64,000 nucleotides of DNA from NCBI GenBank assembly GCA_965215015.1, contig OZ244042.1, forward strand, positions 3,456,001 through 3,520,000, in the 5' to 3' direction. Position numbers and translations under genes: made by a program. Below the pieces are notes generated by a model that searched no databases, had not been told where the DNA came from, and worked only from the letters and a program-made list of their open reading frames with translations. Within the stretch, counting starts at the first letter, position 1. Every line of letters starts with the position of its first letter. This document shows positions 249 to 15,731 of this stretch, piece by piece. This stretch comes from Candidatus Poribacteria bacterium. GTDB lineage: Bacteria > Poribacteria > WGA-4E > PCPOR2b.

Positions 249-300
249 TTTTGGCTCCTTATAATAAAAACAAGGTGCAGAGGACGAAGAGAGACTGCAC

Positions 301-326
301 GCGCAATGAATTGCGCTACTACGAAC
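301..326. repeat. GTAG-type REP element (representative of several dispersed intergenic repeat families)
   Basis: GCGCAATGAATTGCGCTACTAC recurs at ~33450 and ~53383. Other families: TGTCGCCCCGCTGGGGCT (~10488, 19999, 28338, 53111), CTTACGCAGTTGAAC (~24399, 30078, 33063, 53305), TGTCTGAATCAGGATT (~633, 2046, 11864, 44678). Confidence 0.75.
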
Positions 327-374
327 TGGGATTATAATAAATACAATCTGTTGTACGTGTTCTTAGCATGAGTG

Positions 375-626
375 TCATTCTCCAGTCTCCTCAATAACGG
401 TTCGTTTGTCGAAGTCTTTCGCGCAGACGCTGAGGACTTCGATCTTCCCTTCCGCTTTGCCGAGTTGTTCGGTCAGTTTTTCCTCTAACGCCCGCCTGCG
501 TGTGGTATTGATGTCGCCGAGGAATGCGCTATATTGGATGCGTTTTAAGCCGTAATCGAGGCAGACATCGGCGATTTTTTTGCGGATGCGGTCTTTAACA
601 ATGTCGTAGATGACGTAGGTGTGCAT
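375..626 (-). CDS. cas2: CRISPR-associated endonuclease Cas2
   Basis: YVIYDI...RKKIADVCLDYGLKRIQYSAF motif, 83 aa, between cas1 and cas4. Confidence 0.95.
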   Translation of the reverse strand: MHTYVIYDIVKDRIRKKIADVCLDYGLKRIQYSAFLGDINTTRRRALEEKLTEQLGKAEGKIEVLSVCAKDFDKRTVIEETGE

Positions 627-786
627 AATTATTGTCTAAATCGCGGATTAAGCGGAGGACACGGATTGGGAAACGAATCCCGCGATGCGCTTAGATGGCA
701 ATTTGGGTTAATAGTGTAGAAGGGGTTAGAAACCGAGTTTTGCAGAGACGGGTGGGGAAACCCCGCCCCGATGGTTTCTAGGTTGT

Positions 787-1896
787 TTACCATGTGGAGG
801 TGAAGGGGTGATAATCCCGTTCGCGGCGTAGGCACATCGCTAGATGACGGGCTTGGATTTGGATAATGTTGCACAGTTTTTGTTCCTTTCGCTCGAATCG
901 CTCGGTCTCTTGAAGCCTCGCTAGGACGCGGTCGGCAAGGGCGCGTCGGGTCCCTTGGCTGAGGCGGCGTTGTGTTGGGGTTTCGTCCTCGGTATCGGGT
1001 TTTGAGGATTGGTGCGCGGCTTTGGCGGCGTCCCTGTCGGGATCTTCCCACTCCACTTTGAATCGCTTGTTGATCATCACAAACACCACTCGATCCACGA
1101 TCGGTTGGCGGAACTCTTCGATAAAGTCGAGCACTAATGAGGGTTTACCGGGGCGGTCAACGTGTAGGAATCCGGCGAACGGTTCAAGCCCAGCCAATGT
1201 GAGTGCGCTCCAGACCTGTGAGTAGAGTATGCCGTAGCCGTAGTTGAGCAGTGCGTTGACGTCATCGACCACGCCTTGATGGTTTCGGGTGGTGAAGCGT
1301 CCGGCGGGCAGCAGCCGTTGGACGCATTCCCAGTAGAGTGCGCCGGCGCGTCCTTCAAGGTTGAGTAGTGTCCCCCGTGCGCTGTCAATCGGCGGTTCAT
1401 CGGCTGCCGCAACGGTTGGGGATTGGACAGACCGAATCTCGTCAATAAGTCCTTCGATCTTGGTCAGCCGTTCGATCAATTCGACGTATTTTTTGGGTGC
1501 CCGTTTCTTGCGGTATTTGCCGAAGTAGCGGACGAGGTTGATTTGGTTCTTCAGTTTGCCTGCGGTGAATTGTTTGGCGATTTCTAAGCCGCGCTCGTCG
1601 TGGTAGGCGGCGAGCTGCTCACGTCGGGAAATCACGGTCGCTGTCAGCGATGGGCTGTTGAGTTTCGCATAGGGTTTGCCGTTGAAACTGAGGAATGAGA
1701 TTTCGATGCCGCGCTCGGTGCACGCTTCAATAAGGTCTGAGGACATGCTGACGCCGCGTGAGGCGATGACGATCTGGTCGAGGTCCATCAGAGGGTGCTC
1801 CTCTTTTTCGCGGTCTTTGTCTCGGTATCGGACGCTGACGCGTTCGGAGCGTTTGCCGAGGTATGTGCCGTAGTCGGAGATGATGAGTTGTTCCAC
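787..1896 (-). CDS. cas1: CRISPR-associated endonuclease Cas1
   Basis: LEGRAGALYW, NALLNYGYGILY, GFLH and SLVLDFIEEFRQPIVDR catalytic motifs. Confidence 0.97.
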   Translation of the reverse strand: MEQLIISDYGTYLGKRSERVSVRYRDKDREKEEHPLMDLDQIVIASRGVSMSSDLIEACTERGIEISFLSFNGKPYAKLNSPSLTATVISRREQLAAYHDERGLEIAKQFTAGKLKNQINLVRYFGKYRKKRAPKKYVELIERLTKIEGLIDEIRSVQSPTVAAADEPPIDSARGTLLNLEGRAGALYWECVQRLLPAGRFTTRNHQGVVDDVNALLNYGYGILYSQVWSALTLAGLEPFAGFLHVDRPGKPSLVLDFIEEFRQPIVDRVVFVMINKRFKVEWEDPDRDAAKAAHQSSKPDTEDETPTQRRLSQGTRRALADRVLARLQETERFERKEQKLCNIIQIQARHLAMCLRRERDYHPFTSTW

Positions 1897-2030
1897 TGTG
1901 CTGCTTCCTTTCGATTTACGTCGATCTTGAATTTCGGGTATACTTTAATCAGGAACGTAGATTTGCGTTCCCTATGCCAGTTGTCAGCAATTATGGGAGA
2001 TTGGCTGAGGTGGTTCTCGTTAATTGAGGG

Positions 2031-2345
2031 GTGTGCATAATAATTGTCTGAATCAGGATTTTCTGGATTGAAGGATTAATAGGATTATGGGACTCAAGTT
2101 GACACCGAAGGGACAAGAAAGGTCTGCCGAGAAGTGTGCATAATAATTGTCTGAATCAGGATTTTCTGGATTGAAGGATTAACAGGATTATGGGACTCAA
2201 GTTGACACCGAAGGGACAAGAAAGGTCTGCTGAGAAGCGTGCATAATAATTGTCTGAATCAGGATTTTCTGGATTGAAGGATTAATAGGATTATGGGACT
2301 CAAGTTGACACCGAAGGGACAAGAAAGGCCGGCCGAGCAGCGTGC
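2031..2345. repeat. Three tandem near-identical 103-bp repeats upstream of cas1
   Basis: Units start at 2031, 2134 and 2237 (GYGTGCATAATAATTGTCTGAATCAGGATT...GGACAAGAAAGGYC), with a few bases of a fourth at 2340. Confidence 0.95.
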
Positions 2346-2407
2346 GTCATTTACTGCCCAAGGCTGACAACTTCTCAGAAGCATAACGCATCTGATTGCT
2401 ATTTCGG

Positions 2408-2575
2408 TCAACAGCGGAAAACTTTGGCTTGCCCCTCGAAGGGGGCTTGGAGGCGATGCCTTATTATACGCTCCACAAGAATATTGTTGAGACTGACGTG
2501 GAGGCGGGGAAGCGTATTCTCGTGGAGAAATTCGGTGAGGTCGCGGAGTTCTGTAACCGTAATTGAAAGCTCCAT
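2408..2575 (-). CDS. Small or truncated hypothetical protein (55 aa) coupled to the NDT gene
   Basis: ATG overlaps the NDT stop (TGATG); MELSITVTELRDLTEFLHENTLPRL...; may be a 5' gene fragment. Confidence 0.4.
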   Translation of the reverse strand: MELSITVTELRDLTEFLHENTLPRLHVSLNNILVERIIRHRLQAPFEGQAKVFRC

Positions 2576-3108
2576 CACCCGCCTCCTTCTAACTCGATAT
2601 CAGTATGGAACGCGCGGCTACTCGCGTTCCATACATCTTTTTTGCCCCCGGCGTCTCTAGCCCATTGATAGATAGAACTATGCGCCTTTTCGATGCTATC
2701 TAACGACGTTAGCAGCCAGTAAGCCCAATTCTGTCTGGGGAGCGCAGCAGCTAACATGAGGTTGATAGGATATTCGCTTCTCTCACCAGAATCGCGGAGG
2801 TCGTCATGAAAGATAAATACTTCTTTTTCGAGTATAGCCGCAGCGCCTAGTTCAAACATCACGCCCGGGTCAGGTGGTATCCCGTTGACGACAGCAAAAA
2901 TCCCGTCGGCTTCTTTGATGTCGAGAACGTTCTTCATGGCAAGTTCGTAAGCCCACTCCTCGGACTTGCCGATGATATGATTGTTCCGTTGAAACGGTTC
3001 CCAAACTTCAAGCCCTATCGCTTCAAGACGCTTGACGAATTCGGGGAGTACGAGTTGCCGTTCGACCGTTGAGAAGCCAAAGTCGTTGGCTAAATAGATG
3101 GTCTTCAT
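2575..3108 (-). CDS. Nucleoside 2-deoxyribosyltransferase (NDT)-family protein
   Basis: IYLA N-terminus, EVWEPF, ADGIFAVVNG-PPDPGVMFELG (catalytic Glu position) and YPINLML. Confidence 0.85.
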   Translation of the reverse strand: MKTIYLANDFGFSTVERQLVLPEFVKRLEAIGLEVWEPFQRNNHIIGKSEEWAYELAMKNVLDIKEADGIFAVVNGIPPDPGVMFELGAAAILEKEVFIFHDDLRDSGERSEYPINLMLAAALPRQNWAYWLLTSLDSIEKAHSSIYQWARDAGGKKDVWNASSRAFHTDIELEGGG

Positions 3109-3122
3109 TCAAACCTCCGCGG

Positions 3123-3548
3123 TCAACCTGAAAGCACGATGATTATGGATTCTGCTTGGAATGTCTCGAGTAAGAATCTCTCACTATCGAGAATTAACAG
3201 CGCTCCTTCCGTTACTGAGACTAAAACTACAGGGAGAACAGTCGAATCCATAAGAAAGTAAACTTTGCCCGCCCGGTAATAAAAAGCCCGGAAGTTTTCA
3301 ACCGTAATACGATCGTCGTCTATGCGAATTACTCCATTATCATCGTAGTCAGCAGCAGTGAGAGGATGTTCGATTACGATCACACTATCTGTCGAGCCAT
3401 CGAGCCCCTGCTCCCCTTTCGGACCCGGCAGCCCCTGTGGGCCCATTGACCCCATTGGCCCTGTAAGCCCTTGCGGCCCCGTGGGCCCCGGCGGCCCCTC
3501 GCATCCGATGGAAATAACTAATAGTAAAACACACAACATCTCTTTCAT
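3123..3548 (-). CDS. Collagen-like lipoprotein, copy 1 (12 Gly-X-Y triplets)
   Basis: Hydrophobic signal with SIG-C lipobox, then GPP GPT GPQ..., then a ~90-aa globular domain (IEHPLT...[14 protein letters not shown]). Confidence 0.85.
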
Positions 3549-3654
3549 TGCTTTATCCTTTCATGGTGCGCCCGAACAGGCACTTAAACAAGTTTTAATT
3601 GAATTGCCTATGTAAATAAATCCATTGATTGCTCTAATCAAAAGCGTTCTACGC

Positions 3655-3720
3655 GGTTGCATGATGCTTGATTTCCCGGCGTTATTAGCACCTGCGAGGA
3701 GCGTTAAAGAGCGGATTGTG
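3655..3720 (-). pseudogene. Fragment of AAA/ABC-type ATPase N-terminus (Walker A)
   Basis: IRSLTLLAGANNAGKSSIMQP inside ORF 3561-3749; no remainder of the gene is present. Confidence 0.6.
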
Positions 3721-4103
3721 TAAAAGTACCGCCGATAGCATCTCCTCAACCTGACTGAACCCGAACTGACTCGCCAATTCGGGAACTACTTCCTCGGCTA
3801 ACTCTCGATTTACATCAGAGAGGAAGGCTCGCCTTCCCATCACGTATTCCTGCCATTCGTCAAGTTCTTTACCAACATCATGTGCGAGAACGCTGGTTAA
3901 GAGCACTTGCTCCTCGGACTCCGTCAGTGGGGGTGAGAAAGTATGCTGAAGCAGCGGTAACAATGTGATTAAAGCGTCAATTTCGATAAGTGTATGGTCA
4001 AAATAAGCTTTGCTCAAAATTTCTTCGCTTTGCGATTTTTTTTCTTCCAATCGCGATTGAGCATGAATTCAACAGCCTCTCTTCTGAATGCTTGATAATC
4101 CAT
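3685..4103 (-). pseudogene. Truncated, frameshifted Cas3''/Cas10d-type HD-domain gene
   Basis: ATG 4103 with GGAGG RBS. Removing one base from the A8 run (4036-4043) and one from the T4 run (~4000) gives MDYQAFRR...KKKIAKRRNFEQSLFDHTL...LAHDVGKELDEWQEYV. Confidence 0.7.
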
Positions 4104-4145
4104 ATTTCAACGCCTCCATGGAAACAAATTCTTGAATTGATTATA

Positions 4146-4179
4146 ATTATAACCCCTATTCCCGTCAGAACACGTCGGT
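4146..4179 (-). promoter_or_regulatory. Putative WYL operator/promoter, copy 2
   Basis: Minus strand ACCGACGTGTTCTGACGG-N10-TATAAT; same motif and spacing as 14513-14546. Confidence 0.7.
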
Positions 4180-4417
4180 GATCGGAAAATTCTGCAATTT
4201 TTCGGGCGCGTGTCATATTTTTTTACGTCTTATCTGCCGCGACAGCAATGTTCGCAAGGGGCAATAGCGAACCCGCTAGCTGCAGAGTTGCCTGTTGTCA
4301 ACCCAATCTACGTTCTTAATCAGTGGTGTTAGCAGCGGTGGGGCACTAATCGAATGTCAACCCCGCCGCTGACTGGGTTGGACTTGGCAGTCTAGCTCAA
4401 CCAAAGTCAAAAACAGT

Positions 4418-5128
4418 TTAATTTTCGCCGGTAGTAGATGGGGTAACCAATCGTTCATAATCGCTAAAACTACGACTCGATCTGTGCAATCGGTAGGGAA
4501 GCATGGCAAGGAAGGTATGCCGTTCCTTGCCAACACGGATCTTCTTCCCACTGTAGATATCAGCTTGATCGAAACTCATTTTAGCGTTGCAATCATCTAA
4601 GTGTTGTAACTGACTTTCGATGTGCCATGTCTCTGCTTGTTCAACTAGAGATATGAAGTCAGAAGGTAGTGCTTCAACTGATTGGATCGGCGGAAGAAAC
4701 TGGAAGAACCCACCACGTTTCCCAAAGTAAGTAATATTAAGCAGTAGCCGCTGCAACTGTTCTTCCTGTGAATCATCGTGAATTTCAAAGCCCAACCTCA
4801 TTTTGCCAACGAAATGGACATATTCGCGGTAGCCGATGGTTCTCTCGAATCCCTCCTTATCGCTAGAATGAGGCGGCTTGAGGATACGAGTAAATACGTT
4901 GTTGACCAAAGCGCGTTCTGGCAAATGCACTGCTAACGACAAAGTGCGAATCCATTCCCACGCTTGTTTGCCGTAGTTGATTCCTTCTGTACGGAGAGCT
5001 GCATCCAACAAGCCCATCTTTATCGCATAGGGGGTTGGTGTCAACAACGTTTTACCGCCTGACGATGTGGCATTGCTCGGCTTGAGTGAAAAGAAGGTCG
5101 TGGGTTGATAAGTTGCTAAGACCCACAT
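4418..5128 (-). CDS. cas5: Type I-A-like Cas5
   Basis: N-terminal FFSLK...TLLTPTPYAIKMGL, YREYV and YFGKRGGF Gly loop; follows cas7. Confidence 0.85.
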   Translation of the reverse strand: MWVLATYQPTTFFSLKPSNATSSGGKTLLTPTPYAIKMGLLDAALRTEGINYGKQAWEWIRTLSLAVHLPERALVNNVFTRILKPPHSSDKEGFERTIGYREYVHFVGKMRLGFEIHDDSQEEQLQRLLLNITYFGKRGGFFQFLPPIQSVEALPSDFISLVEQAETWHIESQLQHLDDCNAKMSFDQADIYSGKKIRVGKERHTFLAMLPYRLHRSSRSFSDYERLVTPSTTGEN

Positions 5129-5129
5129 T

Positions 5130-6140
5130 TTAAGTGCCTCCGTTATAGTTAATTTTGTAAGGTGCAGTTGTGTTAGCTAGGTTTGCCATAACTTCAGCAT
5201 ACTCGCCTAATGAATCAAATTTGCAGAGTTTAATCGCGCTTGTCTCGATCTGATTGAGTGCGTCTGCGACACGTCTGATTTCGTCCTTGTACTTGTCATT
5301 AAGTGGACTAACTGTAGGTGCGGGCAAAATCTTTGTGCTGAGACTAACAATTCCGTCGAAGTTCACAAGATGAGGGTGCTGAGCACTTCGCATTGCGCCG
5401 TTTGGCTCAACAAAAGTACACAGTAGGCTTTCAATCAGTGTTTTGTATCGTTGATTGCGCTCACTGTCATCAATCGCGTATTTCTGGTTGATATCGTTGA
5501 AACCAAGCCGTGAAACTTCAATGCCTGCTACAACTGCGTAAACCCCTGAATTGGCTGGACGGTGGAAGATATTCTGACCGAGATTGGCACCACTTTCATC
5601 TGTATTATCACCATTATCTGCATTCTGCTGTCCACGATCAGGTACATATTTGACATGAAAGTAGTTGTCGGTCTTAGTCAGCTCTGGTATGCCCACCACC
5701 CAACCGAACTCTACAATTGACTTGCGGGGTGTGGCCTTCTTCTTGGATCGATTTGTAACAAGGATGCCTTCAATGTCATCCATTGCACACATTTCCAACA
5801 TCGTTGTAATCATTTTGTCATCCGGTGTGCTCTGTTCGTAGCTGCTGTCAAAGGTTGAATCGTCGAGAATGCGATTTGCGCTGAACCTTTGGCAACCTGA
5901 ACATAGCTTCAGTCCACTATTTCTGCTCAAGTGGAACAGATGTTCGGCTTGAATGTGTTTGAACATATCACCTGAAATTGCGTTCACGGCAGCGAGTTTA
6001 CCCGCTTGATCATAGATGTTAACCATTCGGGTTGCGATTTGATTTCCTTCACTGCCTTCGTTATTGAGGGAGTGCATATCAATTGTGGCTCTGCCGCAGA
6101 TGGTGAGGGAGTAAAGGGCTTTGCTATCACTCATTGTCAT
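5130..6140 (-). CDS. cas7: Cas7 (DevR/Csa2 family)
   Basis: HSLNNEGSEGN, AISGDMFKH, C-x-x-C and RKSIVEFGW motifs typical of DevR/Csa2-type Cas7. Confidence 0.9.
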   Translation of the reverse strand: MTMSDSKALYSLTICGRATIDMHSLNNEGSEGNQIATRMVNIYDQAGKLAAVNAISGDMFKHIQAEHLFHLSRNSGLKLCSGCQRFSANRILDDSTFDSSYEQSTPDDKMITTMLEMCAMDDIEGILVTNRSKKKATPRKSIVEFGWVVGIPELTKTDNYFHVKYVPDRGQQNADNGDNTDESGANLGQNIFHRPANSGVYAVVAGIEVSRLGFNDINQKYAIDDSERNQRYKTLIESLLCTFVEPNGAMRSAQHPHLVNFDGIVSLSTKILPAPTVSPLNDKYKDEIRRVADALNQIETSAIKLCKFDSLGEYAEVMANLANTTAPYKINYNGGT

Positions 6141-6200
6141 TCTCCTTTTCGGTATGAGGGGGTGTGGCGATATTGCTTGTTGGTCTATCTTGTCGAAAGA

Positions 6201-6641
6201 TTAAGAAGGAATATCTCCTGAACTTGTGTCAGTGGTTGTGGTAGTATCAGTTGTTGATACATCATCTCTGCTAGTAGAAGCGTATCCGAACGCCAATAGT
6301 AGATGACAAATTGTTTGAGGACCATGTTCATCAATTAATTGAACAATTTCGGTAATGTCGTCTTCACGGACACTTTTCCGCCAGTGTTGGGCTGAGTTTT
6401 CGGCTACGCTGGCATTTTCGGCGTTGAAAGAGTGAAGAAAATTACCTAACGCCTGAATGAACTCGTCCGGGTAGTTTGCCTTGCGTCGTAATTCTTGACC
6501 AAGTCCATATCGGATGTCATACGGAGGTCTTCCACTTTTTGCCATATATTGCAGCGTCACAGTACTTTGACGGATGGATCTGGCGATGTTTTGAAAGCCT
6601 TCGCTTTTAATAATTGGCGTAAGTTCTTTCTGCTTGCTCAT
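6201..6641 (-). CDS. Putative internally translated small subunit (Cas11-like), in frame within cas8
   Basis: GAGGAG-7nt-ATG inside cas8 (RBS 6649-6654, ATG 6641); 146 aa starting MSKQKELTPIIKSEGFQNIARSIR. Confidence 0.65.
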   Translation of the reverse strand: MSKQKELTPIIKSEGFQNIARSIRQSTVTLQYMAKSGRPPYDIRYGLGQELRRKANYPDEFIQALGNFLHSFNAENASVAENSAQHWRKSVREDDITEIVQLIDEHGPQTICHLLLAFGYASTSRDDVSTTDTTTTTDTSSGDIPS

Positions 6642-8006
6642 CAGTAGACTCCTCAAATTGGTTGCGCTCAACGGCTTAACCCAGAAGTTTTCCTTCACTA
6701 AGGCGTTGAGCAGATAGTTTGGATATTGTGATGTGAATTCAAAGAACGCTGTAAAATCGTTTGCGGAAAGAAAATTTCGATAGTGCTGGAGTAGTTGGTA
6801 ACCCTCACTCCGTTCCTCCTCTAAACTTTTTACGATGTTGAGGTGTTCCTCTATCACCCCCTGGTACACTTGCACATCATTTCTATCTTTAATGTTCATC
6901 CAGCTGGGTAGATTGATAAAGGAAAGGTTCATTACGGCGGCCGAGTTGCCGAGATCCTTATAAAATGCGGTGTGTAAGCCCGCTACAAAGTTTTCAGGGG
7001 CACGCCCCTGCAACTCCACAGCTAAGGAAGCACTTGCTTCTGCTTCACAGTGTCGTAGAAAGCACTTTGTGTAGCTGAGTGCAGCAAAGATGTCCGATTT
7101 AATTGCGTGTCGGTTCCCTACCACATCCCTGAATCTTGCGAAAATTGTGTTGTGCTCATCCAATGTGATATTGACCGGGGCTAGTGCAAAGGTCTTCCGA
7201 TCCTTCGGGGGCTCGCCCTGTTTTACTAACACGAAGCGGGGTACTGCACAATGGTAGAAACCAACCATCTTCAGATATTCGCATAGCCAGAAGCTGTTTA
7301 CATTCTTCATTGACAAGCTGCTTGCTTTGGTGGCGTTCTGTCCTTTGCCTGTGCTTGGGTTGAACACTTGGAGCATATTCAAGCGATCTTTACCGATAAA
7401 CTGTTTCTCTTTTTTGAGTTTTTTCCATGCTTGCTCACAGGTCGCAACTGGGTTTGGAATTTTAGCATGGAGTGCCAGCAACAGCTTGAGTAACTCCGCG
7501 AAGTGCTCACGGGTTTCATACCAATTGGTGACGGCTGAATTGTAAGCACTAATCCCTGACATCATGTTGATTTTCTGCCAAATGCGATAATTGGGGTCTG
7601 GTTCACTTTCTCTCAAAACTGTAAGTGCTTCGCTGTCGTCGGCATTCTGCTTTAGTGTATCACCTAGAGTCCTGCGTAATTCGTTGTAGTCATCGTAACG
7701 CTCTTTTTCTCCGTTGTAATCTATGTTGTAAATATCCTCCGGCATTGTTTCACTGTTCTTTGGTGTTTTAATAAAAGGGATAGGGGCAAAGGAGCTTTTT
7801 AAATTCTCAACCCATTCTGCTTGTAACGCAGGAATGAGTTCAATCGCATAGGTTGTCCCCCTATCCAAAATCTTGATAGTATGGGACTCATATTCGCCGA
7901 GGGTACGTTGCAAAAGTTGGTGTAAGATAGTTGCTAATCCATAAGCGGAACAGACATCAGCAAATGTGCCTGTTTGTTTGTCAACGAAATAGGTCTGTTG
8001 GTACAT
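6201..8006 (-). CDS. cas8: Large Cascade subunit Cas8a-like
   Basis: 601 aa between cas3 and cas7; NPSTGKGQN motif; helical C-terminal domain. Confidence 0.75.
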   Translation of the reverse strand: MYQQTYFVDKQTGTFADVCSAYGLATILHQLLQRTLGEYESHTIKILDRGTTYAIELIPALQAEWVENLKSSFAPIPFIKTPKNSETMPEDIYNIDYNGEKERYDDYNELRRTLGDTLKQNADDSEALTVLRESEPDPNYRIWQKINMMSGISAYNSAVTNWYETREHFAELLKLLLALHAKIPNPVATCEQAWKKLKKEKQFIGKDRLNMLQVFNPSTGKGQNATKASSLSMKNVNSFWLCEYLKMVGFYHCAVPRFVLVKQGEPPKDRKTFALAPVNITLDEHNTIFARFRDVVGNRHAIKSDIFAALSYTKCFLRHCEAEASASLAVELQGRAPENFVAGLHTAFYKDLGNSAAVMNLSFINLPSWMNIKDRNDVQVYQGVIEEHLNIVKSLEEERSEGYQLLQHYRNFLSANDFTAFFEFTSQYPNYLLNALVKENFWVKPLSATNLRSLLMSKQKELTPIIKSEGFQNIARSIRQSTVTLQYMAKSGRPPYDIRYGLGQELRRKANYPDEFIQALGNFLHSFNAENASVAENSAQHWRKSVREDDITEIVQLIDEHGPQTICHLLLAFGYASTSRDDVSTTDTTTTTDTSSGDIPS

Positions 8007-8019
8007 CAGTTCTCACTCC

Positions 8020-10437
8020 TTATATACTGATTTGTGAAGTTGCTTCTTGGTCAGCGAGTCGTAAGGCTCGGACAATTAAAAAATAAGTCAACAGCGAAGG
8101 TGTGTTGCTTGGGGACACAAACATACCGGTTAATGACCGGGGTTGATCTTGTGTACAAATCTTTTCTAAGTGGGTTTGAGCCACCTGCCCCGCCTCCCCA
8201 ATCATTTGTAAAGTTGTTTCGATTGAAGTTTGGAAATCGGGATGGAGTTCGTAAGTCTGGTATTGATCGGCTTTCGGCGCATGATGACGCGCAATTGCAG
8301 TAAGACTAGCTTTGAATAAAATCTCTTGATCGTAGAAAGTAGCCCCTAGTAAAGGTGCGACGGCGCGCATACTCTCAACAGCATGTGGGGGCCGTTTAAC
8401 AGGGAAATGTTTCTCCTTTTCGCGTACTGCGGAGTTACCTCGGTTGTAATCGGTATGGGCCGCCATATAGTTTGGATCAATAGGTTTATCAATCAACCGT
8501 TGCCATTCATGTGCCCACCGCTGCCAACCACACGTCAGTTTTCCGATATCGTGCAGAGCAATGCAGAGTCGAATCGTCTGATCAATTGCGCCCTCTTTTG
8601 TTTCCAACCTCTGCTCAAGTTGGGAGGCGGCGTAACTTAGTTCAGCCTCTAGCCCAGCGTCGTATACGTTTAGCAAGCGTTCGATGTGTTCCGTGTATGT
8701 CTCACGGCGATAACCTGTGCTGAGCTCACGTTCTCGGGGGGCTTCGCCCTCAGAGATGCTTAATGCACAAGGCTTTTCCCCCGTTTCAAGCTGAAAGCCT
8801 ATTTTGTCATCGTATGCGACCAATTGTGGATGCACAATAAACAGTGGCGAAATCCCTAAAGTTTCCTTCTCCTTTACTTCGCGCCAGTTGTAGGTGATTG
8901 TAGTACGGCTGTTTGGTGAATCGTCCTCGGCTTCAATAGGATACTTTAGCACCCAACCCAGTCCTTGCTTTTGTGCCTCTTCTTGAAGTTTATCCCACGC
9001 TCCAAAGAGTGTGCCGCGATAGAGATTGAAGCCTTCAACTCGAAACGGTTTATCAAGTGTCTCAGGTTTGTCATGCACGAGAAGCGTTCGGGAATCATTC
9101 TTACGAATCAACTCACGAGCAAGAGCCAATTCTTGGTTAGATATTGCCCTCTCCATTTTATCGCGCTTATCGCTGCTCGCAAGTTGCTCTAATATCTTCT
9201 CATCGCTTTCGCGGTGGACTTCGTTGATAACCTCTTGCTCTGCCGTAAAGTTCAACACCCTTCCGTTTCGTTGCTGGAATGCAGCTATTGTCAGTTCACA
9301 AGTTTTCTTTTCGTAGGGGGCGTAATTTAGTGAGCCATCAGGCCGAGATGGCACGGGATAGATTCGCACTGTGCCTGATTCATTTTTGAACCTAGCACAC
9401 CGTCCGGCCCGTTGAAAAATTGCGCTTGCTGGTGCCAGTTCTGTGTGCAAATTTTCACACGTAATGTCTAAGCCAACCTCGATCACCTGTGTAGCAACCA
9501 AAATCACGTTATCGGGGCCCACACCTCGTTTGAAACGCTTGCGTATCATATCCTCTTTAGCTTTACGATCTTCCTTCAGAAAGCGAGAGTGCAATAGCAA
9601 CACTTCCGTTGTGCCACGCTGTGGGTTATCCCGCAACGACTGATACATCTTCTGTGCCCGTGCCACCGTATTGCAAATGACAATACTGCGTTGCTGGTGT
9701 TGAGTGATAACGGCGTCTGTGCTGCACAAAAGTGTTTGATTCTCAATCTTATATTCGCGGCGTTTTCCACACTGAGAAGGAATTTGTTTTAGTTCGTTCT
9801 CAGTCACCTGAACAACTTCGGCGTTAAAATATTCGCTCAAACGGTTGAGTAGCGGTTCCGAAAAAGTCGCAGTCATCAGTAAAAACGGTGTGATACCATT
9901 GAGCATTTTCAGCATTTCAATCACAGTTCCCAACGAAGTATCAGGATCGAATAAGTGAAATTCATCAAAGACTAGATATGCGCCAACAACTGCTCCCGCG
10001 TTGACATTACCCTGACGTAACCCTAGCGCATAAGGGATGTTAAGAAAACTACTCAAGACCTGATCGATTGTCGTAAAAATCAAGTCGCTACGAAACTGAC
10101 GGTCCTCCTGATTTTCACCCGTCTGAATGTTTGCCGTGAGAGTCTGTTGTCTTCCTATTGGCGATTCTTGGAAGTCGGTGTGAAAATTCTTTGCCAAAAC
10201 CCGCATTGGCGTGGCGTAAAGCAACTTCCGGGGAAATGGTTTGTCTTCCTGCTGGGCTAGCAGGAACGGAAACAACGCGGCTTTCGTCTTGCCCGCCCCC
10301 GTTGGTGCTTGTAAAATCACATTGCGCCTGTTTAACAGATGCTGTGCTACCTTGCGTTGAAATGTAAAGGGAATGAATTCAAACATTCTCTGAAACTGGT
10401 TATCCCAATACCGTTTATCTTTATCAAAATTTGACAT
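8020..10437 (-). CDS. cas3: Cas3 helicase with C-terminal HD nuclease
   Basis: APTGAGKT, DEFH, MTAT, ATQVIEVGLDI and QRAGRCAR helicase motifs; then H...LHDIGK...HH...LADQ HD domain. Confidence 0.95.
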   Translation of the reverse strand: MSNFDKDKRYWDNQFQRMFEFIPFTFQRKVAQHLLNRRNVILQAPTGAGKTKAALFPFLLAQQEDKPFPRKLLYATPMRVLAKNFHTDFQESPIGRQQTLTANIQTGENQEDRQFRSDLIFTTIDQVLSSFLNIPYALGLRQGNVNAGAVVGAYLVFDEFHLFDPDTSLGTVIEMLKMLNGITPFLLMTATFSEPLLNRLSEYFNAEVVQVTENELKQIPSQCGKRREYKIENQTLLCSTDAVITQHQQRSIVICNTVARAQKMYQSLRDNPQRGTTEVLLLHSRFLKEDRKAKEDMIRKRFKRGVGPDNVILVATQVIEVGLDITCENLHTELAPASAIFQRAGRCARFKNESGTVRIYPVPSRPDGSLNYAPYEKKTCELTIAAFQQRNGRVLNFTAEQEVINEVHRESDEKILEQLASSDKRDKMERAISNQELALARELIRKNDSRTLLVHDKPETLDKPFRVEGFNLYRGTLFGAWDKLQEEAQKQGLGWVLKYPIEAEDDSPNSRTTITYNWREVKEKETLGISPLFIVHPQLVAYDDKIGFQLETGEKPCALSISEGEAPRERELSTGYRRETYTEHIERLLNVYDAGLEAELSYAASQLEQRLETKEGAIDQTIRLCIALHDIGKLTCGWQRWAHEWQRLIDKPIDPNYMAAHTDYNRGNSAVREKEKHFPVKRPPHAVESMRAVAPLLGATFYDQEILFKASLTAIARHHAPKADQYQTYELHPDFQTSIETTLQMIGEAGQVAQTHLEKICTQDQPRSLTGMFVSPSNTPSLLTYFLIVRALRLADQEATSQISI

Positions 10438-10783
10438 TGTAAAACCTCCTTGAGTTTGATACGTGATTTATAATTCAAGTTGCTACTTGTCGTCCCGTTG
10501 GGGCTTTGGGTTGTAGTGACTCGTTCTTGATATACACATCGCGCTCCTCTAGAGCGCGAAGATTGGACCTATTACTATTCTATAGACATCTTGCTCCATA
10601 TGACCCTGTATGATGAAAGCCCATTGCTTGGTACAGCGATCTCAGCAAGTTGCATTGCCCGTTGCTAAATCATTGCGAAAGGCAGAGTCCTCCAGTTTTA
10701 ATAGAAATATTGATGGATTTTCAATAACCAACAACTTGGGTTAAAATGGTAGCCACAAAGGCTACCTCCATTATCTCTACGCC

Positions 10784-11722
10784 TTATCCAACCTTATACT
10801 TCCCCAACCCAAACGTTGCATTTTTGCCGACGTGTAGAAACGCACCCAACGCCACAAATGGCAGGAACGCCGCCAAATCGCCCGCATAGGTTACGCTGCC
10901 GACTAGCCCGCCGAGTTGCATTTTCTGATTCTGCCGCGACGAATAGCGCGTCCAATCGTGCCAACGTAATTTGCTCTGGACCGTTTGGACGGTTTCTGCC
11001 TGTGCGATGAGTCCCTTAAAATCGAGATTCAGCGATTCGCCGCAGTGGAAATATGCCAAGGCGGAGATGCGTCCAATTAAACGTCGCCAGAAGAGGTGGA
11101 ACGGGAGTTTATCCGTTATTTGCCCCTTGTGTGTGACCCGCGTGGGGGTGAGTAGGTGGACGGTCAATGAATCGGTTGGCAAAGATTCTACTTGCCGCTG
11201 GATTTCGTCGAAACAGAGTGCGTTATTGCGGTTGTGTGCCATCTGGGTGTCGCTGTCGTAGATTGATTCCCCACTATCGGTCAGGACTTGGGTCAGTTGG
11301 AAACGGCCGCGCCCCTTGCCGATGCCGATCTCACCCAAATCGCGGAAGCTGACAAGAAAATAGGGGAGGTAGTCGATGGCACGGCCGATAAGGGTGAGAC
11401 GGAACGCAAACGAATTGCCTCGGCGGTATTCACCTCGTGTGTTCAACGGATCGATGACAAAGGGTCTTGGCACATCGCCGTATGTCCGCAGTTGTTGCGC
11501 GCCCTCAAATGGGGCGGTCTCGAAGATGTACGGGTATGGGCAGACCGTTTTAAGGGTGCAGTCCCGGCAGTCAATGGGCCCTTGGGTGCAGACCATTTTT
11601 CGGAAGGCGTGTCCGAATCCGCCGCGGAGTGTGGAGCCGGCGTAGGGGGGCATCAGAATGGTTGAGAGTGCTGTTAGGATCACATGGTAGCGTGCGAATC
11701 GGAAGTTTTGAAGTGGATTCAT
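10784..11722 (-). CDS. cas6: Cas6 crRNA-processing RAMP endoribonuclease
   Basis: GSTLRGGFG, Cys cluster, VPRPFVI and C-terminal HVGKNATFGLG Gly loop. Confidence 0.92.
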   Translation of the reverse strand: MNPLQNFRFARYHVILTALSTILMPPYAGSTLRGGFGHAFRKMVCTQGPIDCRDCTLKTVCPYPYIFETAPFEGAQQLRTYGDVPRPFVIDPLNTRGEYRRGNSFAFRLTLIGRAIDYLPYFLVSFRDLGEIGIGKGRGRFQLTQVLTDSGESIYDSDTQMAHNRNNALCFDEIQRQVESLPTDSLTVHLLTPTRVTHKGQITDKLPFHLFWRRLIGRISALAYFHCGESLNLDFKGLIAQAETVQTVQSKLRWHDWTRYSSRQNQKMQLGGLVGSVTYAGDLAAFLPFVALGAFLHVGKNATFGLGKYKVG

Positions 11723-11982
11723 TATTGTGTCCTTTTCTTACATTGTCCGCTTTTCATCGCGTCATTGGGAGATGATTGATTCTCTTTTTAATAAAAAAAA
11801 CAATATTTATTTCAGTCCCCTTTTCATCGGGGCAAAATTTAAGTGAGGGGTGCTCATAATAATTGTCTGAATCGCAGATAGAGTCGATGGTACAGAAAGC
11901 ACGGATACAGATATGGGGCGCAGGTTGTTCAGGCATATCGTGCGGGGTAATCATAAAAAGGGACTGTGGCACGATACAGGTA

Positions 11983-12057
11983 TCATAAAGCAGGTAGTAC
12001 AAGCTGCCGCTCGACTGTTGAGAAACCGAAGTCGTTCGCTAAATAGATTGTCTTCAT
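11983..12057 (-). pseudogene. NDT gene 5' fragment (about 22 codons of homology)
   Basis: [24 protein letters not shown]; identical start to the intact NDT at 2575-3108. Confidence 0.8.
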
Positions 12058-12521
12058 TCAAACCTCCGCGGCCCACCCGAAAGCACGATAACTAGGGATT
12101 CTGCTCCGATCTTGAGTAAGTATTTGTCCTCATCGGAAATAAACAACGAGCCTTCCGCTACTGCGACTATCAAGATATAAGCACCCGAATCGATATGAAC
12201 GTAAATTTCGCCTGCCCGGTAATACAAAGCCCGGAAGTTTTCAAGCGTGATACGATCATCATCTATGAAAACTATTCCATTATCGTAGTGATCAATGGTA
12301 AGAGGCCGTTCGATTACGATCACACTATTTGCCGGGCCGGGGAAACCCTGTAGACCCTGCTCCCCTTTCTGCCCCGGCAGCCCCTGCGGGCCTATTGACC
12401 CCATTGGTCCTGTAGGCCCTTGCGGTCCTGTAGGACCCGGCGGCCCCTCGCATCCGACGAATATAACGAATAGTAAAACACTCAACATCAGTGAGTTTGT
12501 CAACGCTTTCATGACTTTCAT
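12054..12521 (-). CDS. Collagen-like lipoprotein, copy 2 (13 Gly-X-Y triplets)
   Basis: FVG-C lipobox, collagen run and a divergent version of the same C-terminal domain. Confidence 0.85.
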
Positions 12522-12744
12522 TGCTTTATCCTTTCATGTTGCGCCCGAACAGGCACTCTTGCGTAAGCGATCTGAAGCCGCTTACCGTTATTTTAGTGAT
12601 GCCTTGAGTCGTTTTTTATAGCCTTTCATGGCGTGTAGCCCATTGTATCGACACCGACTGAGATACAGTTATCTCAAGGTTCTCAGGATCGCCTCCGAGC
12701 AGATCGAGTGCAGCAGTGCCAGTGACGCGCCTTTCGTTCTGCAA
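12521..12744. repeat. ~225-bp segment duplicated at ~14265-14492 (unknown gene tail plus collagen-gene leader)
   Basis: Both copies encode ...LQNERRVTG.AALDLLGGD.ENLEITVSQSV.IQWATRHERL* and share the leader hairpins GTAAGCG...CGCTTAC and GTGCCTGTTCGGGCGC. Confidence 0.9.
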
Positions 12745-12978
12745 CCGCAGCGATTCTTTTTTAAAGCGGTCTCTCATTCGTACCGCTAACTCGGATCGGT
12801 TCTCAATGTCGAAGAAGCAGCCCCACTGTTCGGATTTGCCGACGATACGATTGTTCCGTTCAAACGGCTCCCAGACTTCAAGCCCTATCGCTTCAAGCCG
12901 CTTGACGAATTCGGGGAGCACGAGCTGCCGTTCAACTGCTGAGAAACCGAAGGCGTTGGCTAAATAGATAGTTTTCAT
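12616..12978 (-). pseudogene. Chimeric ORF: NDT N-terminus (~53 aa) fused to the C-terminal tail of an unknown gene
   Basis: Matches the intact NDT up to GKSEQW (~12823), then switches to sequence whose tail recurs at 14363-14491. Confidence 0.8.
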
Positions 12979-13737
12979 TCAGACCTCCCGCGGTGAATCC
13001 TCAAGCACGATGACTATGGCTTCTGGTTCTATCTGAAGTAAGATTTTGTCAGGATCGGCAATCCGCACCGCTCCTTCCTCGACTCCGACCACCAATACGG
13101 GTCTAAAATGTGTATCAATAAGAACATAAACGTGACTGTCCCTGTAATACAAAGCTCGGAAGCTTTCAAGAGTGATACGATCGTCAAATATGCGAATGAT
13201 TCGATTATGATCGTAGCTCGCAGCAGTAAAAGGCTGTTCGATGACGATCACACGATTTGCCGGGCCGGGGAACCCCTGCTCCCCTTTGGGTCCCGTGAGT
13301 CCTGTAGCCCCTTTCGGACCCGGAGGCCCTTCTATGCCCTGCAGACCCTTTGGCCCTATGGGTCCGAGTGGGCCTTCTATGCCCTGTAGACCTCGCTCAC
13401 CCCGTAAACCTTGTATGCCCTGCAGGCCCTGTAGACCTTGGGGGCCCTCGGGTCCGATTAGCCCCGGCGGCCCTTCTATGCCTTGCGGCCCTCGCTCACC
13501 TCGTAACCCTTCTGTGCCTTGCGGCCCTCGCTCACCTCGTAACCCTTGTATGCCCTGCAGGCCCTGTAGACCTTGTTCGCCTTGTTCGCCCTGTTCGCCC
13601 GCCGGCCCCATTGGACCCATTGGACCCGTCGGCCCTGTGGGCCCCGGCGGCCCCTCGCATCCGACGAATATAACGAATAACAAAACACTCAACATCCGTG
13701 AGTGTATCAACGCTTTCATTGCTTTCATGACTTTCAT
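12979..13737 (-). CDS. Collagen-like lipoprotein, copy 3 (44 Gly-X-Y triplets)
   Basis: FVG-C lipobox, long uninterrupted collagen run with GLRGER three times, divergent C-terminal domain. Confidence 0.88.
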
Positions 13738-13741
13738 TGTT

Positions 13742-13816
13742 TTATCCTTTCATGGTGCGCCCGAACAGGCGCTGAGTTGAGAAACCGAAGTCGTTCGCTA
13801 AATAGATGGTCTTCAT
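13742..13816 (-). pseudogene. NDT gene 5' fragment (14 codons) joined to the next collagen-gene leader
   Basis: [14 protein letters not shown], then a junction at ~13775 into GCGCCTGTTCGGGCGC. Confidence 0.8.
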
Positions 13817-13830
13817 TCAAACCTCCGCGG

Positions 13831-14265
13831 TCAACCTGAAAGCACGATGATTATGGATTCTGCTTGGAATGTCTCGAGTAAGAATCTCTCGCTATCGACA
13901 ATTAACAGCGCTCCTTCCGTTACTGAGACTAAAACTACAGGGAGAACAGTCGAATCCATAAGAAAGTAAACTTTGCCCGCCCGGTAATAAAAAGTCCGGA
14001 AGTTTTCAACCGTAATACGATCGTCATCGATGCGAATGACTCCATTATCATCGTAGTCAGCAGCAGTGAGAGGATGTTCGATTGCAATCACACTATCTGC
14101 CGAGCCATCGAGCCCCTGCTCCCCTTTCGGACCCGGCAGTCCTTGTGGTCCCATTGACCCCATTGGACCTGTAGGCCCTTGCGGCCCCATGGGACCCGGC
14201 GGCCCCTCGCATCCGACGAATATAACGAATAGAAAAACACATAACATCTCTTTCATGACTTTCAT
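13831..14265 (-). CDS. Collagen-like lipoprotein, copy 4 (12 Gly-X-Y triplets), near-identical to copy 1
   Basis: FVG-C lipobox; mature protein differs from copy 1 at about 6 positions. Confidence 0.85.
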
Positions 14266-14512
14266 TGCTTTATCCTTTCATGTTGCGCCCGAACAGGCAC
14301 TCTTGCGTAAGCGATCTGAAGCCGCTTACCGTTATTTTAATGAGGCCTTGAATAGTCATTTTTTATAGCCTTTCATGGCGTGTAGCCCATTGTATCGGCA
14401 CTGACTGGGATACAGTGATCTCAAGGTTCTCAGAATCGCCTCCAAGCAGATCGAGTGCAGCAGCGCCGGTTACACGCCTTTCGTTTTGCAACTTAACTGA
14501 GTTTTCAATTAT

Positions 14513-14546
14513 ATTATACAGATCCATACCGTCAGAACATGTCGGT
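14513..14546 (-). promoter_or_regulatory. Putative WYL operator/promoter, copy 1
   Basis: Minus strand ACCGACATGTTCTGACGG-TATGGATCTG-TATAAT, immediately downstream of the WYL gene. Confidence 0.72.
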
Positions 14547-14571
14547 TGTCTAAAATTTTTGTTGTTTTTTA

Positions 14572-15561
14572 CTAGCTCTGGTATTTTTTTATCATTTTTG
14601 TGATTTCTTGGGCGATTTCCTCACGAAAATCGGGGGGCGTGAGCACTTCCGCACAACTGCCCCATTGCAAAATCTGACGCATTAGCCCTTCTCGGCCTTC
14701 GGTATCGAAATGCAGCTCGATTTGGTCGTCCCCGAGGTCAATCTGTTTTTGCAAACCCTGCCATTTCTGGGCGCGTACCCAGCGGGACGCGGGTGGGTTC
14801 ACACGGATGATCGCCTGTACAGGTTGGTCTTTCATGCCGCCGAAGCCGCGTGTGATGTACTCGTTGAGGTCAAAGTCCTCCTGAAGTTCAAAGGTTTCGT
14901 CGAGAAGTGTCAGGGAGCGCATCCGGTCGTCAAATACAAATTCGCGGAGTGCTTTTCGGGTATGGCAATAGCCGATTAGTCGCAGCGCGTTGTCCGAATA
15001 GGCGATGCCGTAAGGGTCAACCTTGCGTTGGCGGGATTCGCCCCGGCTCGCAGAATGATAGAGGAGGTCGAGGCGTTTCCGTTCTTCACAGGCGGTTTGT
15101 GCTTGGCTGATGTGTGGTGCGACATTTTGAAAATCTGTCACGGGTTGGAGTCGAAACGCGAGGATGTTTTGAATACGGTTAAAGTAGTCCTGACTTTCAA
15201 CCGGCAGTGTGGCGTGAATTTTTTTAAGGGCGTTGGTGAGTGCTTCAAAGTATGGCGTTCCTTTGAGGAACGTGGTGGCATCTTGTGCGATGGTCAACGC
15301 CAACCGTTCGGGTACCGACAGATCGAGTGCTGGGAACTGGTAATCTTCCTTGAATCTATAGCGCACTTGCTGCCCCTCCCTCTCTTTCAGAATTGATGGA
15401 AAATACCGCATGAGGCTAGGGAGGTCCCGGTCAATCGTGCGTTCACTGACACCGATCTCAGCAATCAGCTGTTGCTTTGTGATACCGTAACGTCTGTTAA
15501 TCTTCTGCAGAATCAGCCATTGCCGCTCTATTTGCTTTTCGTCTGCAATTCGTTGGGGCAT
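14572..15561 (-). CDS. wHTH-WYL-WCX transcriptional regulator
   Basis: HTH (GVSERTIDRDL), WYL domain (RKVDPYGI...LIGYCHTRKALREF) and WCX (ILQWGSCAEVLTPPDFR). Confidence 0.93.
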   Translation of the reverse strand: MPQRIADEKQIERQWLILQKINRRYGITKQQLIAEIGVSERTIDRDLPSLMRYFPSILKEREGQQVRYRFKEDYQFPALDLSVPERLALTIAQDATTFLKGTPYFEALTNALKKIHATLPVESQDYFNRIQNILAFRLQPVTDFQNVAPHISQAQTACEERKRLDLLYHSASRGESRQRKVDPYGIAYSDNALRLIGYCHTRKALREFVFDDRMRSLTLLDETFELQEDFDLNEYITRGFGGMKDQPVQAIIRVNPPASRWVRAQKWQGLQKQIDLGDDQIELHFDTEGREGLMRQILQWGSCAEVLTPPDFREEIAQEITKMIKKYQS

Positions 15562-15731
15562 TATTTGTTCCTTTTTCTGAATTGGTATTTCTATGAAGGA
15601 TGAACAAACGGAATGTAGATTTCCGTTCTCTACGAATTAATCGAGCGATTCGGGTTAGAGGTAAGGCCGGGTAAAAGTGTTGTTAAAATTTTGGGATGTG
15701 AAGTTTTTTGGGGGGATGGTTCTATTTTTCG

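Follow-up and report, generated by a model that had tools for sequence, protein, structure and literature searches.

The WYL regulators described so far differ in the layout of the promoters on which they act, and we summarize here the closest of them. PafBC recognizes the consensus tGTCgg(N10)tA(N3)T, which has no -35 element and is contacted at -23 to -28, the '-26 element' (PMC8635444). DriD of Caulobacter crescentus binds ATACGAC(X)7GTCGTAT, or more generally CGXC(X)7GXCG with an AT-rich centre, its R37 and R41 recognizing G2 and the G paired with C4, respectively, and its E40 contacting C1 (PMC10853764); both DriD and PafBC are activated by single-stranded DNA (PMC9186387, PMC11804915). 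DdaA, with the consensus CGWCA-N5-TGWCG, activates CRISPR-Cas (PMC12392091), and SiwR is a homodimeric activator on a 19-bp palindrome located between -35 and -10 that acts via the -26 region (PMC10693628). We compared these systems with two sites, each combining a palindromic box with a -10 hexamer, and with the adjacent gene for a WYL regulator (WYL-A), all within a CRISPR-Cas locus of a Candidatus Poribacteria bacterium whose genome is of the sponge-symbiont type (assembly GCA_965215015.1, contig OZ244042.1, positions 3,456,001 to 3,520,000; this stretch of 64,000 nt is referred to as the window, and positions are counted from its first letter). Reading the two sites as operator-promoters is well supported by comparative evidence from the sequences, while the proposal that they are regulator-dependent sigma-70-type promoters of the CRISPR-Cas locus, activated by WYL-A, is one to which we would give slightly less than an even chance.

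An earlier note made from the letters of this stretch (the original prediction) had reported a duplicated motif with equal N10 spacing and unrelated spacers, and re-reading both minus-strand copies bore this out. The arrangement ACCGACRTGTTCTGACGG-N10-TATAAT was observed on the minus strand at 14546..14513 (site 1) and at 4179..4146 (site 2). The box of site 1, ACCGACATGTTCTGACGG (14529..14546), is an imperfect palindrome of the form CCGAC-N7-GACGG that starts 25 nt past the WYL-A stop codon and is followed, after the 10-nt spacer tatggatctg, by a TATAAT at 14513..14518, with transcription predicted to start near 14506. At site 2 the box reads ACCGACGTGTTCTGACGG (4162..4179), the 10-nt spacer gaataggggt separates it from the TATAAT at 4146..4151, and the predicted start is near 4139. 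The two spacers are identical at 1 of 10 bases, and beyond the box and -10 the flanks of the two sites align poorly except for their upstream A/T tracts. Within the window, the 18-mer was matched twice at up to 3 mismatches (expected 0.07), and two or more matches were obtained in 0 of 100 shuffles. Across the genome of 5,943,281 bases, sites 1 and 2 were the only matches to the 17-mer with 0-1 mismatch (the next best had 2 mismatches) as well as the only matches to the loose form CGNC-N7-GNCG-N11-TATAAT, so the box is not a repeat of the repetitive extragenic palindromic (REP) type, an objection that the original prediction had raised against itself. Other forms of the motif were less restrictive: CGWC-N7-GWCG with N11 and TANNNT was found at 6 places including sites 1 and 2, TG[AT]CGG-N10-TATAAT at 3 places, the third of which (1739063) lies within a 367-aa open reading frame (ORF), and CCGWC-N7-GWCGG at 18 places elsewhere in the genome, with all 3 of those inspected falling within ORFs of at least 108 aa.

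Sites 1 and 2 both contain TGACGG-N10-TATAAT. The N10 spacing was constant in 22 of 22 distinct sites, and in 5 of the 22 TGTCGG replaced TGACGG. The 17-bp palindrome is centred 19 nt before the -10 at both sites. Assuming a start 7 nt past the -10, this puts its dyad at about -31 and the proximal half-site TGACGG at about -28 to -23. When the region 16-18 nt before the conserved -10 was scanned for a -35 element, no hexamer agreed with TTGACA at 4 of 6 positions, and the sequence there is CATGTT; canonical TTGACT-N18-TATAAT promoters occur elsewhere in the phylum. The cores, CGAC-ATGTTCT-GACG at site 1 and CGAC-GTGTTCT-GACG at site 2, both fit CGXC-N7-GXCG with an AT-rich centre. Because of this fit, together with TGACGG at N10 in the absence of a -35, the sites can be described as DriD-like in sequence and PafBC/SiwR-like in position, with a box that ends 10 nt before the -10 instead of lying upstream of the -35 as the DriD and DdaA sites do. 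We also observed a second TATAAT 5-6 nt past the conserved one at both sites (site 1, 14508..14513, overlapping the first; site 2, 4140..4145; both minus strand), which is absent from the sites of relatives. No terminator was found between the WYL-A gene and the site 1 box, and no box was found 5' of the WYL-A gene itself.

WYL-A (14572..15561, minus strand) is a 329-aa regulator with a helix-turn-helix (HTH)-WYL-WCX organization by Pfam and PADLOC. The WYL domain (PF13280) scored 59 bits (cut-off 21.8) and WCX (PF25583) 53.2 bits (cut-off 23.9), while HTH_11 scored 20.2 bits, below its cut-off of 25, in WYL-A and 29.1 bits in an orthologue of 53-54% identity from another family of the order. 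Two PADLOC profiles of CAS-associated WYL proteins were matched, PDLC01457 with an E-value of 1.4e-39 and a second with 7.6e-34. The best solved relative was DriD (8tp8/9pfq; E 2e-8, residues 24-321, with a HMMER alignment that spans the HTH), compared with 1.8e-7 for PafBC, 0.0045 for CapW and 0.0094 for BrxR. The recognition helix of WYL-A, SERTIDRD, holds R41 and R45; R41, D44 and R45 align with R37, E40 and R41 of DriD and were invariant in 6 of 6 members of the WYL-A family. A homodimer model scored 0.55, with 0.00 for the best of 3 controls, and so passed a mark that, among proteins of solved structure, was reached by 20 of 30 pairs and 1 of 23 single chains, a pass that may stem from likeness because DriD dimers are already solved. 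The dimer runs shared at least 59% of their contacts at a predicted local distance difference test score (pLDDT) of at least 74, with interface residues 79-118 and 295-327, and WYL-A is predicted from these models to dimerize through its WCX and helical-bundle regions. An AlphaFold2 model of the monomer, built on a 6-row alignment, had a mean pLDDT of 47.4, too low to support a comparison of folds.

Conservation of the sites was examined in 159 genomes of the order and 176 of the phylum, using the reversed motif as the control (labels beginning with G and L denote genomes and loci, respectively). The 17-mer with up to 1 mismatch was observed at 24 places in 19 of the 159 genomes of the order (reversed control 0). 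TATAAT followed exactly 10 nt on at 16 of these places, while the remaining 8 comprised unrelated sequence, including 4 copies of one repeated gene (G108, G133), and 1 place truncated by the end of its locus. Box, N10 and TATAAT together, with up to 2 mismatches, were found at 18 places in 13 of the 176 genomes of the phylum, with 1-3 per genome (control 0). Averaged over columns, the frequency of the majority base in the 18 distinct sites was 0.96 in the box and 1.00 in the -10, compared with 0.59 in the spacer, 0.48 in the 40 nt downstream and 0.59 from -60 to -21, and TATAAT at N10 was perfect in 18 of 18. The sites share common descent, and these counts should not be treated as independent of one another. 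A box lies downstream of every one of the 8 full-length WYL-A copies (71-100% identity), at about 25-35 nt past the stop in 7 of the 8 and at about 330 nt in G002, and no box was found in G033 and G029, which hold only a broken WYL-A. The WYL-A copy adjoining cas6 in G013 contains an internal TAG. A conserved operator-promoter that travels with the WYL gene is well supported by these comparisons of sequence. In another family of the order, GCGACGTGTTCTGACGG was observed without a -10 inside a repeated gene-like sequence (L024, L025, L029, L030; G108, G133), present in three copies in G108, which is probably an insertion sequence unrelated to promoters.

The sites of relatives fell into two types. 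Type 1 sites lie right after the WYL-A gene and before cas6 (G024, G027, G034, G038, G013, G002), and type 2 sites lie after cas6 and before the effector operon. The type 2 box precedes cas3-cas8-cas7-cas5 in G038, a module identical in kind to that of the window, the type I-D gene cas10d in G014, G031, G039 and G035, cas8-cas7-cas5-cas3 in G030, and the paralogue WYL-B in G013. Judged by the gene order WYL-A, box, cas6 in the six genomes with type 1 sites, cas6 is the ancestral first gene behind site 1. Site 2 is likewise the ancestral promoter of the effector operon, now placed before a stump of cas10d, the ancestral first gene behind it. The original prediction had the adjacent WYL protein controlling a collagen/cas6 block and an HD/collagen/NDT block. 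The conserved operator-promoter linked to the WYL gene stands, but the ancestral targets differ from those proposed: the 'HD' gene is actually the frameshifted 5' stump of cas10d, and the collagen-like and NDT genes are insertions restricted to this genome; the collagen-like genes occur at this locus alone, and none of the 28 further genomes of the family contained a collagen-like homologue. Since the targets in relatives are cas genes and the collagen-like genes are confined to this genome, the two blocks are ancestral CRISPR promoters with new cargo.

Further sites were observed in front of other genes. G013 holds an additional copy of WYL-A with a box behind it (L086 5263-6127), after which come an ECF-type sigma gene and a type I-D module. 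A box also stands downstream of a truncated WYL-A in G027 (L067 8445-11914), a C-terminal piece with WCX alone, and the next three genes (encoding 234, 243 and 298 aa) gave no Pfam or PADLOC match. Sites do spread by duplication, because this second box of G027 follows a WYL-A fragment. Taken across genomes, the box and -10 look like a portable cassette, preceding cas6, cas3, cas10d, cas8, WYL-B, an ECF sigma gene and genes of no known family. The modules between the conserved cas6 and cas1 vary widely among close genomes.

WYL-A orthologues were also observed outside CRISPR loci. The orthologue of 53-54% identity adjoins SSB, exonuclease-like and unassigned genes (L083 12851-17123; L084; L087-L090), with no cas gene in the 18 kb examined. 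All four distinct loci, drawn from two genomes and four metagenome contigs of which some are identical in sequence, have CCGAC-ACCAGTT-GTCGG-N10-CATAAT about 200-280 nt downstream of it, with N10 spacers that differ from locus to locus. This orthologue keeps the half-sites, N7, N10 and recognition helix (SERTIERD), and the centre of the palindrome is changed. Two SSB paralogues and an RNase H/3'-5' exonuclease-like gene flank it, and the genes that follow the box encode an 85-aa protein, an SSB and a 180-aa protein; the locus may be a small DNA-damage or mobile-element module. No box was observed with the orthologues of 44-45% identity (G041-G043 and one metagenome locus); a promoter-like TTGACT-N18-TAnnAT precedes an unrelated gene in G041, G043 and the metagenome locus, with none in G042. 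Among 15 distant WYL paralogues (24-31% identity), no CGNC-N7-GNCG with a -10 was found within about 1.5 kb, except for the known site in G014.

The paralogue WYL-B, with 25-28% identity to WYL-A and the helix RSTRIxYED, has PafBC as its best solved relative (E 2e-21). Directly past its stop, before cas6 or effector genes, it has a palindrome of its own, AGTGCG-NN-TATATT-GCACT, followed by N9 and TATAAT. Eight exact matches to this palindrome were found in 8 of 29 genomes, each adjoining WYL-B (L061 9470-9510; L062 12310-12350, minus strand; G013, G016, G017, G031, G037, G039), along with a ninth carrying 3 mismatches, and it was absent from genomes with WYL-A only, including this one. From the dyad of this 19-bp palindrome to the first T of the -10 is 19 nt, the distance also measured for the 17-bp CCGAC box. 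WYL-B has Glu at the position of the second arginine, and we infer that the two regulators may share a common frame, with the G for the first arginine kept and the base pair for the second inverted in the WYL-B palindrome. Homologues of WYL-B (34-35% identity) were found on plasmids of Synechocystis PCC 6714, Nostoc CENA543 and Cylindrospermopsis (L105-L107), with the gene order WYL, cas6 (Cmx6), cas3, cmx8, and none of these three loci contained a CCGAC box. A GATGCC..AGGCG motif between the cyanobacterial WYL gene and cas6 was considered as an operator and rejected; it matches the repeat of the neighbouring Cylindrospermopsis CRISPR array, and its copies therefore look like degenerate repeats. 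A third and unlinked paralogue, WYL-C (genome 1362332-1363354), has the helix NRATIQRD.

Under the activation that we favour, a homodimer of the adjacent WYL-A would bind the palindrome in the manner of DriD, with the guanine of CGAC read by R41 and the guanine paired with its final C read by R45. The WYL domain would load a nucleic-acid-type ligand produced in infection or DNA damage, and the loaded protein would help RNA polymerase start in a PafBC/SiwR-style activation. Its targets would be the ancestral cas6 promoter at site 1 and the ancestral effector-operon promoter at site 2, and rearrangements would have put the collagen-like lipoprotein and NDT genes behind both sites and the cas10d stump behind site 2. 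By analogy the system appears closest in logic to SiwR of Mycobacterium smegmatis, and is notable for its CRISPR targets, its portability and its parallel paralogue pair. Like WYL-A, SiwR is a homodimeric HTH-WYL protein (the dimer being predicted here) encoded beside its target operon (PMC10693628). Its imperfect palindrome of 19 bp falls between the -35 and -10 positions, activation depends on the -26 region, and DNA binding requires an HTH arginine pair at i and i+4, R38/R42, which corresponds to R41/R45 here (PMC10693628). SiwR differs in having DinB-like targets instead of CRISPR-Cas, in belonging to the Actinobacteria and in the sequence of its palindrome (PMC10693628), and the WYL-A operator, unlike that of SiwR, is duplicated and placed downstream of the regulator gene, on that gene's strand. 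A glyoxalase-family gene was observed directly 5' of the WYL gene in relatives (L062 13781-14293; L069 2597-3109; L085 2573-3109), and a glyoxalase-like gene is described upstream of siwR in some Actinobacteria (PMC10693628); this shared neighbour may be a coincidence.

The other activators each match part of the arrangement. With PafBC the sites share TG(T/A)CGG exactly 10 nt before a sigma-70 -10, the missing -35, the zone from -23 to -28 and a WYL-WCX regulator (PMC8635444). PafBC differs as a PafB/PafC heterodimer with a non-palindromic site, no DNA binding without RNA polymerase and a regulon of about 150 genes, compared with one gene, a palindrome and 2 genomic sites for WYL-A (PMC8635444, PMC11804915). 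With one regulator gene and a palindromic site here, the homodimeric SiwR is a nearer model than PafBC proper. DriD aligns over its full length with WYL-A and binds as a homodimer to CGXC-N7-GXCG with matching base readers (PMC10853764). Its didA site, however, ends at -36, upstream of the -35, whereas the sites described here overlap the -35 position, and DriD controls DNA-damage genes and its own promoter, whereas no box precedes the WYL-A gene (PMC10853764, PMC9186387). DdaA of the Moraxellaceae has its CGWCA-N5-TGWCG, which site 1 fits exactly, in CRISPR-Cas promoters and raises cas transcription (PMC12392091). It differs as a global regulator that is encoded elsewhere and replaces SOS, while WYL-A is encoded in the locus with two sites; the DdaA motif lies about 50 bp before the start, and its authors oppose sigma adaptation, compared with a dyad at about -31 here (PMC12392091). 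The original prediction had named the PafBC motif, the DriD palindrome and the sensing of single-stranded DNA by both, and these claims match what the papers say (PMC8635444, PMC10853764, PMC9186387, PMC11804915).

Several observations weigh against activation, and most of them bear on whether WYL-A might instead be a repressor, with a dimer lying over -23 to -39 of a promoter made self-sufficient by its -10 and A/T tracts and released by a ligand, the pattern of BrxR, CapW and Sll7009. We regard this as possible but doubtful. Most of the characterized WYL regulators of defence loci repress, among them BrxR and CapW (PMC9122601) and Sll7009 (PMC10212523), and WYL repressors are also described in Vibrio (PMC13622015). 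BrxR, CapW and Sll7009 of Synechocystis resemble WYL-A in being found in or beside defence loci (PMC10212523, PMC9122601), and Sll7009 belongs to a type I-D locus, the subtype of several relatives of the window locus (PMC10212523); these three differ from the WYL-A proposed here in being repressors (PMC10212523, PMC9122601). The site of BrxR lies downstream of the BrxR promoter and consists of 11-bp inverted repeats separated by 5 bp (PMC9122601), and for Sll7009 the available text of a type I-D review gives no binding site (PMC10212523). The similarity of BrxR and CapW to WYL-A is weak (E 0.0045-0.0094), however, and in sequence WYL-A is nearer to DriD and PafBC. The promoter itself can be argued in both directions. 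The perfect TATAAT in 18 of 18 sites, with conserved upstream A/T tracts, might fire without a factor, and in this genome the second TATAAT turns the CTGACG of the box into a -35-like element (16 nt away at site 1, 16-17 nt overall), so that on such a promoter a bound dimer would repress. With no terminator between WYL-A and the box, a bound dimer could also block read-through. Against this, the conserved -10 has no -35, and the distance from dyad to -10 is equal in two unrelated palindromes and in the distant orthologue, which occlusion does not need, although the constant N10 may in part reflect inheritance. No autoregulatory box precedes the WYL-A gene. The persistence of the box in genomes without WYL-A would suit a repressor, as an activator-free promoter would still work there, yet such conservation is unexpected for a mere repressor site too. 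We favour activation over repression because the -35 is missing and the dyad distance is fixed in three box families, and because WYL-A and WYL-B are closer to activators and no box precedes the regulator gene. The ligand in an activating mechanism may not be single-stranded DNA, because the DriD motif RSWRLDR aligns with REFVFDDR in WYL-A, where R206 and R213 are kept and the middle arginine is V209, and single-stranded DNA binding by PafB requires both arginines R211/R214 (PMC11804915); DdaA likewise is described without the first arginine of the WYL-domain pair (PMC12392091).

The genomes without WYL-A also raise the question of whether another factor common to box-bearing genomes, either a non-WYL protein or a cross-recognizing WYL-B, binds the CCGAC box with WYL-A as a mere neighbour. 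The box is strictly kept before effector operons in four such genomes (G014, G030, G031, G039), with WYL-B as the one WYL-domain gene of G030 and G039, and it is also kept in G035, which holds neither WYL-A nor WYL-B, only WYL-C, and from whose locus the WYL gene and cas6 are deleted. It is possible that in these genomes the box is carried along by effector modules exchanged between loci, at their 5' edge. We consider another factor unlikely, as the box follows genes of the WYL-A family in two unrelated contexts, CRISPR and SSB/exonuclease loci, agrees with the consensus of WYL regulators that read bases through the arginines conserved in WYL-A, and occurs at the 1-3 copies per genome that suit a local regulator, while WYL-B has its own box and Glu for the second arginine. 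WYL-C was rejected as the binder in genomes without WYL-A, as its helix lacks the first arginine in an alignment by eye and it was not found in G030 and G039. It is most improbable that the box has no regulatory role and is a relic of duplication of the WYL 3' end, a chance repeat, a REP element, an RNA hairpin or a terminator. The A-rich stretch upstream of site 2 does resemble the last WYL-A codons, and the second box of G027 follows a C-terminal fragment, but box and -10 are kept at 0.96-1.00 with flanks at 0.48-0.59, and the genome's 2 copies were matched by 0 of 100 shuffles. A REP or dispersed repeat was ruled out by 2 copies in 5.94 Mb and 1-3 per genome in 13 genomes. A structured RNA or terminator was also rejected, with folding no better than in shuffles (z 0.41 and 0.40), no T-run after the box and no matches in an Rfam search of the window.

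A broader reading, which we advance as a whole with considerable doubt, is that '-26 element' promoters, known to date from PafBC and SiwR of the Actinobacteria, are also present in an unrelated uncultivated phylum and make CRISPR-Cas inducible. Two paralogous WYL homodimers encoded in the loci, each with its own palindrome (CCGAC-N7-GWCGG and AGTGC-N9-GCACT) and a dyad 19 nt before a consensus -10 without a -35, would switch on cas6 and effector operons upon binding a nucleic-acid ligand. The cassette would sit at the 5' edge of exchangeable effector modules and would have captured collagen-like lipoprotein, NDT, ECF sigma and SSB genes. How CRISPR-Cas is switched on is known for few systems, and this locus offers a conserved operator, a predicted R41/R45 code against the G and C of CGAC, a specificity swap between paralogues and a fixed distance from dyad to -10. 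If activation is true, the promoter logic of PafBC and SiwR extends beyond the Actinobacteria and to adaptive immunity; if repression is true, this would still be the first defined operator of this CRISPR-associated WYL clade among the literature found. In the library of papers searched, no publication on these boxes or on Poribacteria WYL regulators was found.

The order on the minus strand of the window is WYL-A, site 1, collagen-like and NDT genes, cas6, the effector operon, site 2 and the cas10d stump, followed by a fourth collagen-like gene, a complete NDT gene, a tandem 103-bp repeat, cas1 (787..1896) and cas2 (375..626), both on the minus strand. The remaining cas genes are likewise minus-strand. 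cas6 (10784..11722) was identified by Pfam (CRISPR_Cas6) and PADLOC (Cas6, E 2e-108). The effector operon (4418..10437) contains cas3 (8020..10437), a cas8a-like gene (6201..8006), a Csa2/DevR-like cas7 (5130..6140) and a cas5a-like gene (4418..5128). The spacer between cas6 and cas3 in the window has no box, and both of its ends still align with G038. The cas10d stump (3561..4103), the HD part, consists of three short ORFs in different frames, which align within a single frame to the beginning of the 926-aa Cas10d from G014, the gene being broken by frameshifts after about 140-180 of 926 codons. The remainder of the I-D module is gone, and an I-A-like module (cas3, cas8a-like, csa2-like, cas5a-like) stands upstream of the stump.

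The insertion between the site 1 promoter and cas6 (11754..14512, minus strand) was seen only in this genome. It contains three collagen-like lipoprotein genes (14265..13831, 13737..12979 and 12521..12054), 5' pieces of the NDT gene (12978..12616 and 12057..11992), all on the minus strand, an 82-aa ORF and repeated leaders of about 140 nt (14492.. and 12745..), and it is built from tandemly repeated units, each comprising a leader, a collagen gene and an NDT 5' end. Downstream of site 2, a fourth collagen-like lipoprotein gene (3123..3548) and the complete NDT-family gene (2575..3108) are also on the minus strand. All four collagen-like lipoproteins have a signal peptide with Cys, G-X-Y repeats and a tail of about 90 aa, with a whole or cut NDT gene alongside (11754-14512, 2575-3584). 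In a large protein collection, only two other clusters match the collagen-like protein over its full length; a WYL-A cluster of 96% identity and one collagen-like cluster both list a longest contig of 12,606 nt.

At the syntenic place in relatives (L061, L062, L066, L069, L070 and L086 compared with window 1-15600), CoA-transferase, SDR and glyoxalase genes flank one side, and close genomes keep cas6 and cas1 at 82-93% identity. The effector modules between cas6 and cas1 there include I-A-like, several I-D and cas8-7-5-3 forms, and IS200-like transposase genes adjoin cas1/cas2 in three of these loci. The 103-bp unit between NDT and cas1 (2033-2345; 3.0 copies, 96% identity) is not a CRISPR array, and 35 of its bases recur at 11839-11873 near the 82-aa ORF. 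Just left of the window is the CRISPR array of the locus (G000:C1:3453519-3455204), in which 24 repeats recur about every 73 nt, and a single repeat lies apart from it at 3452602.

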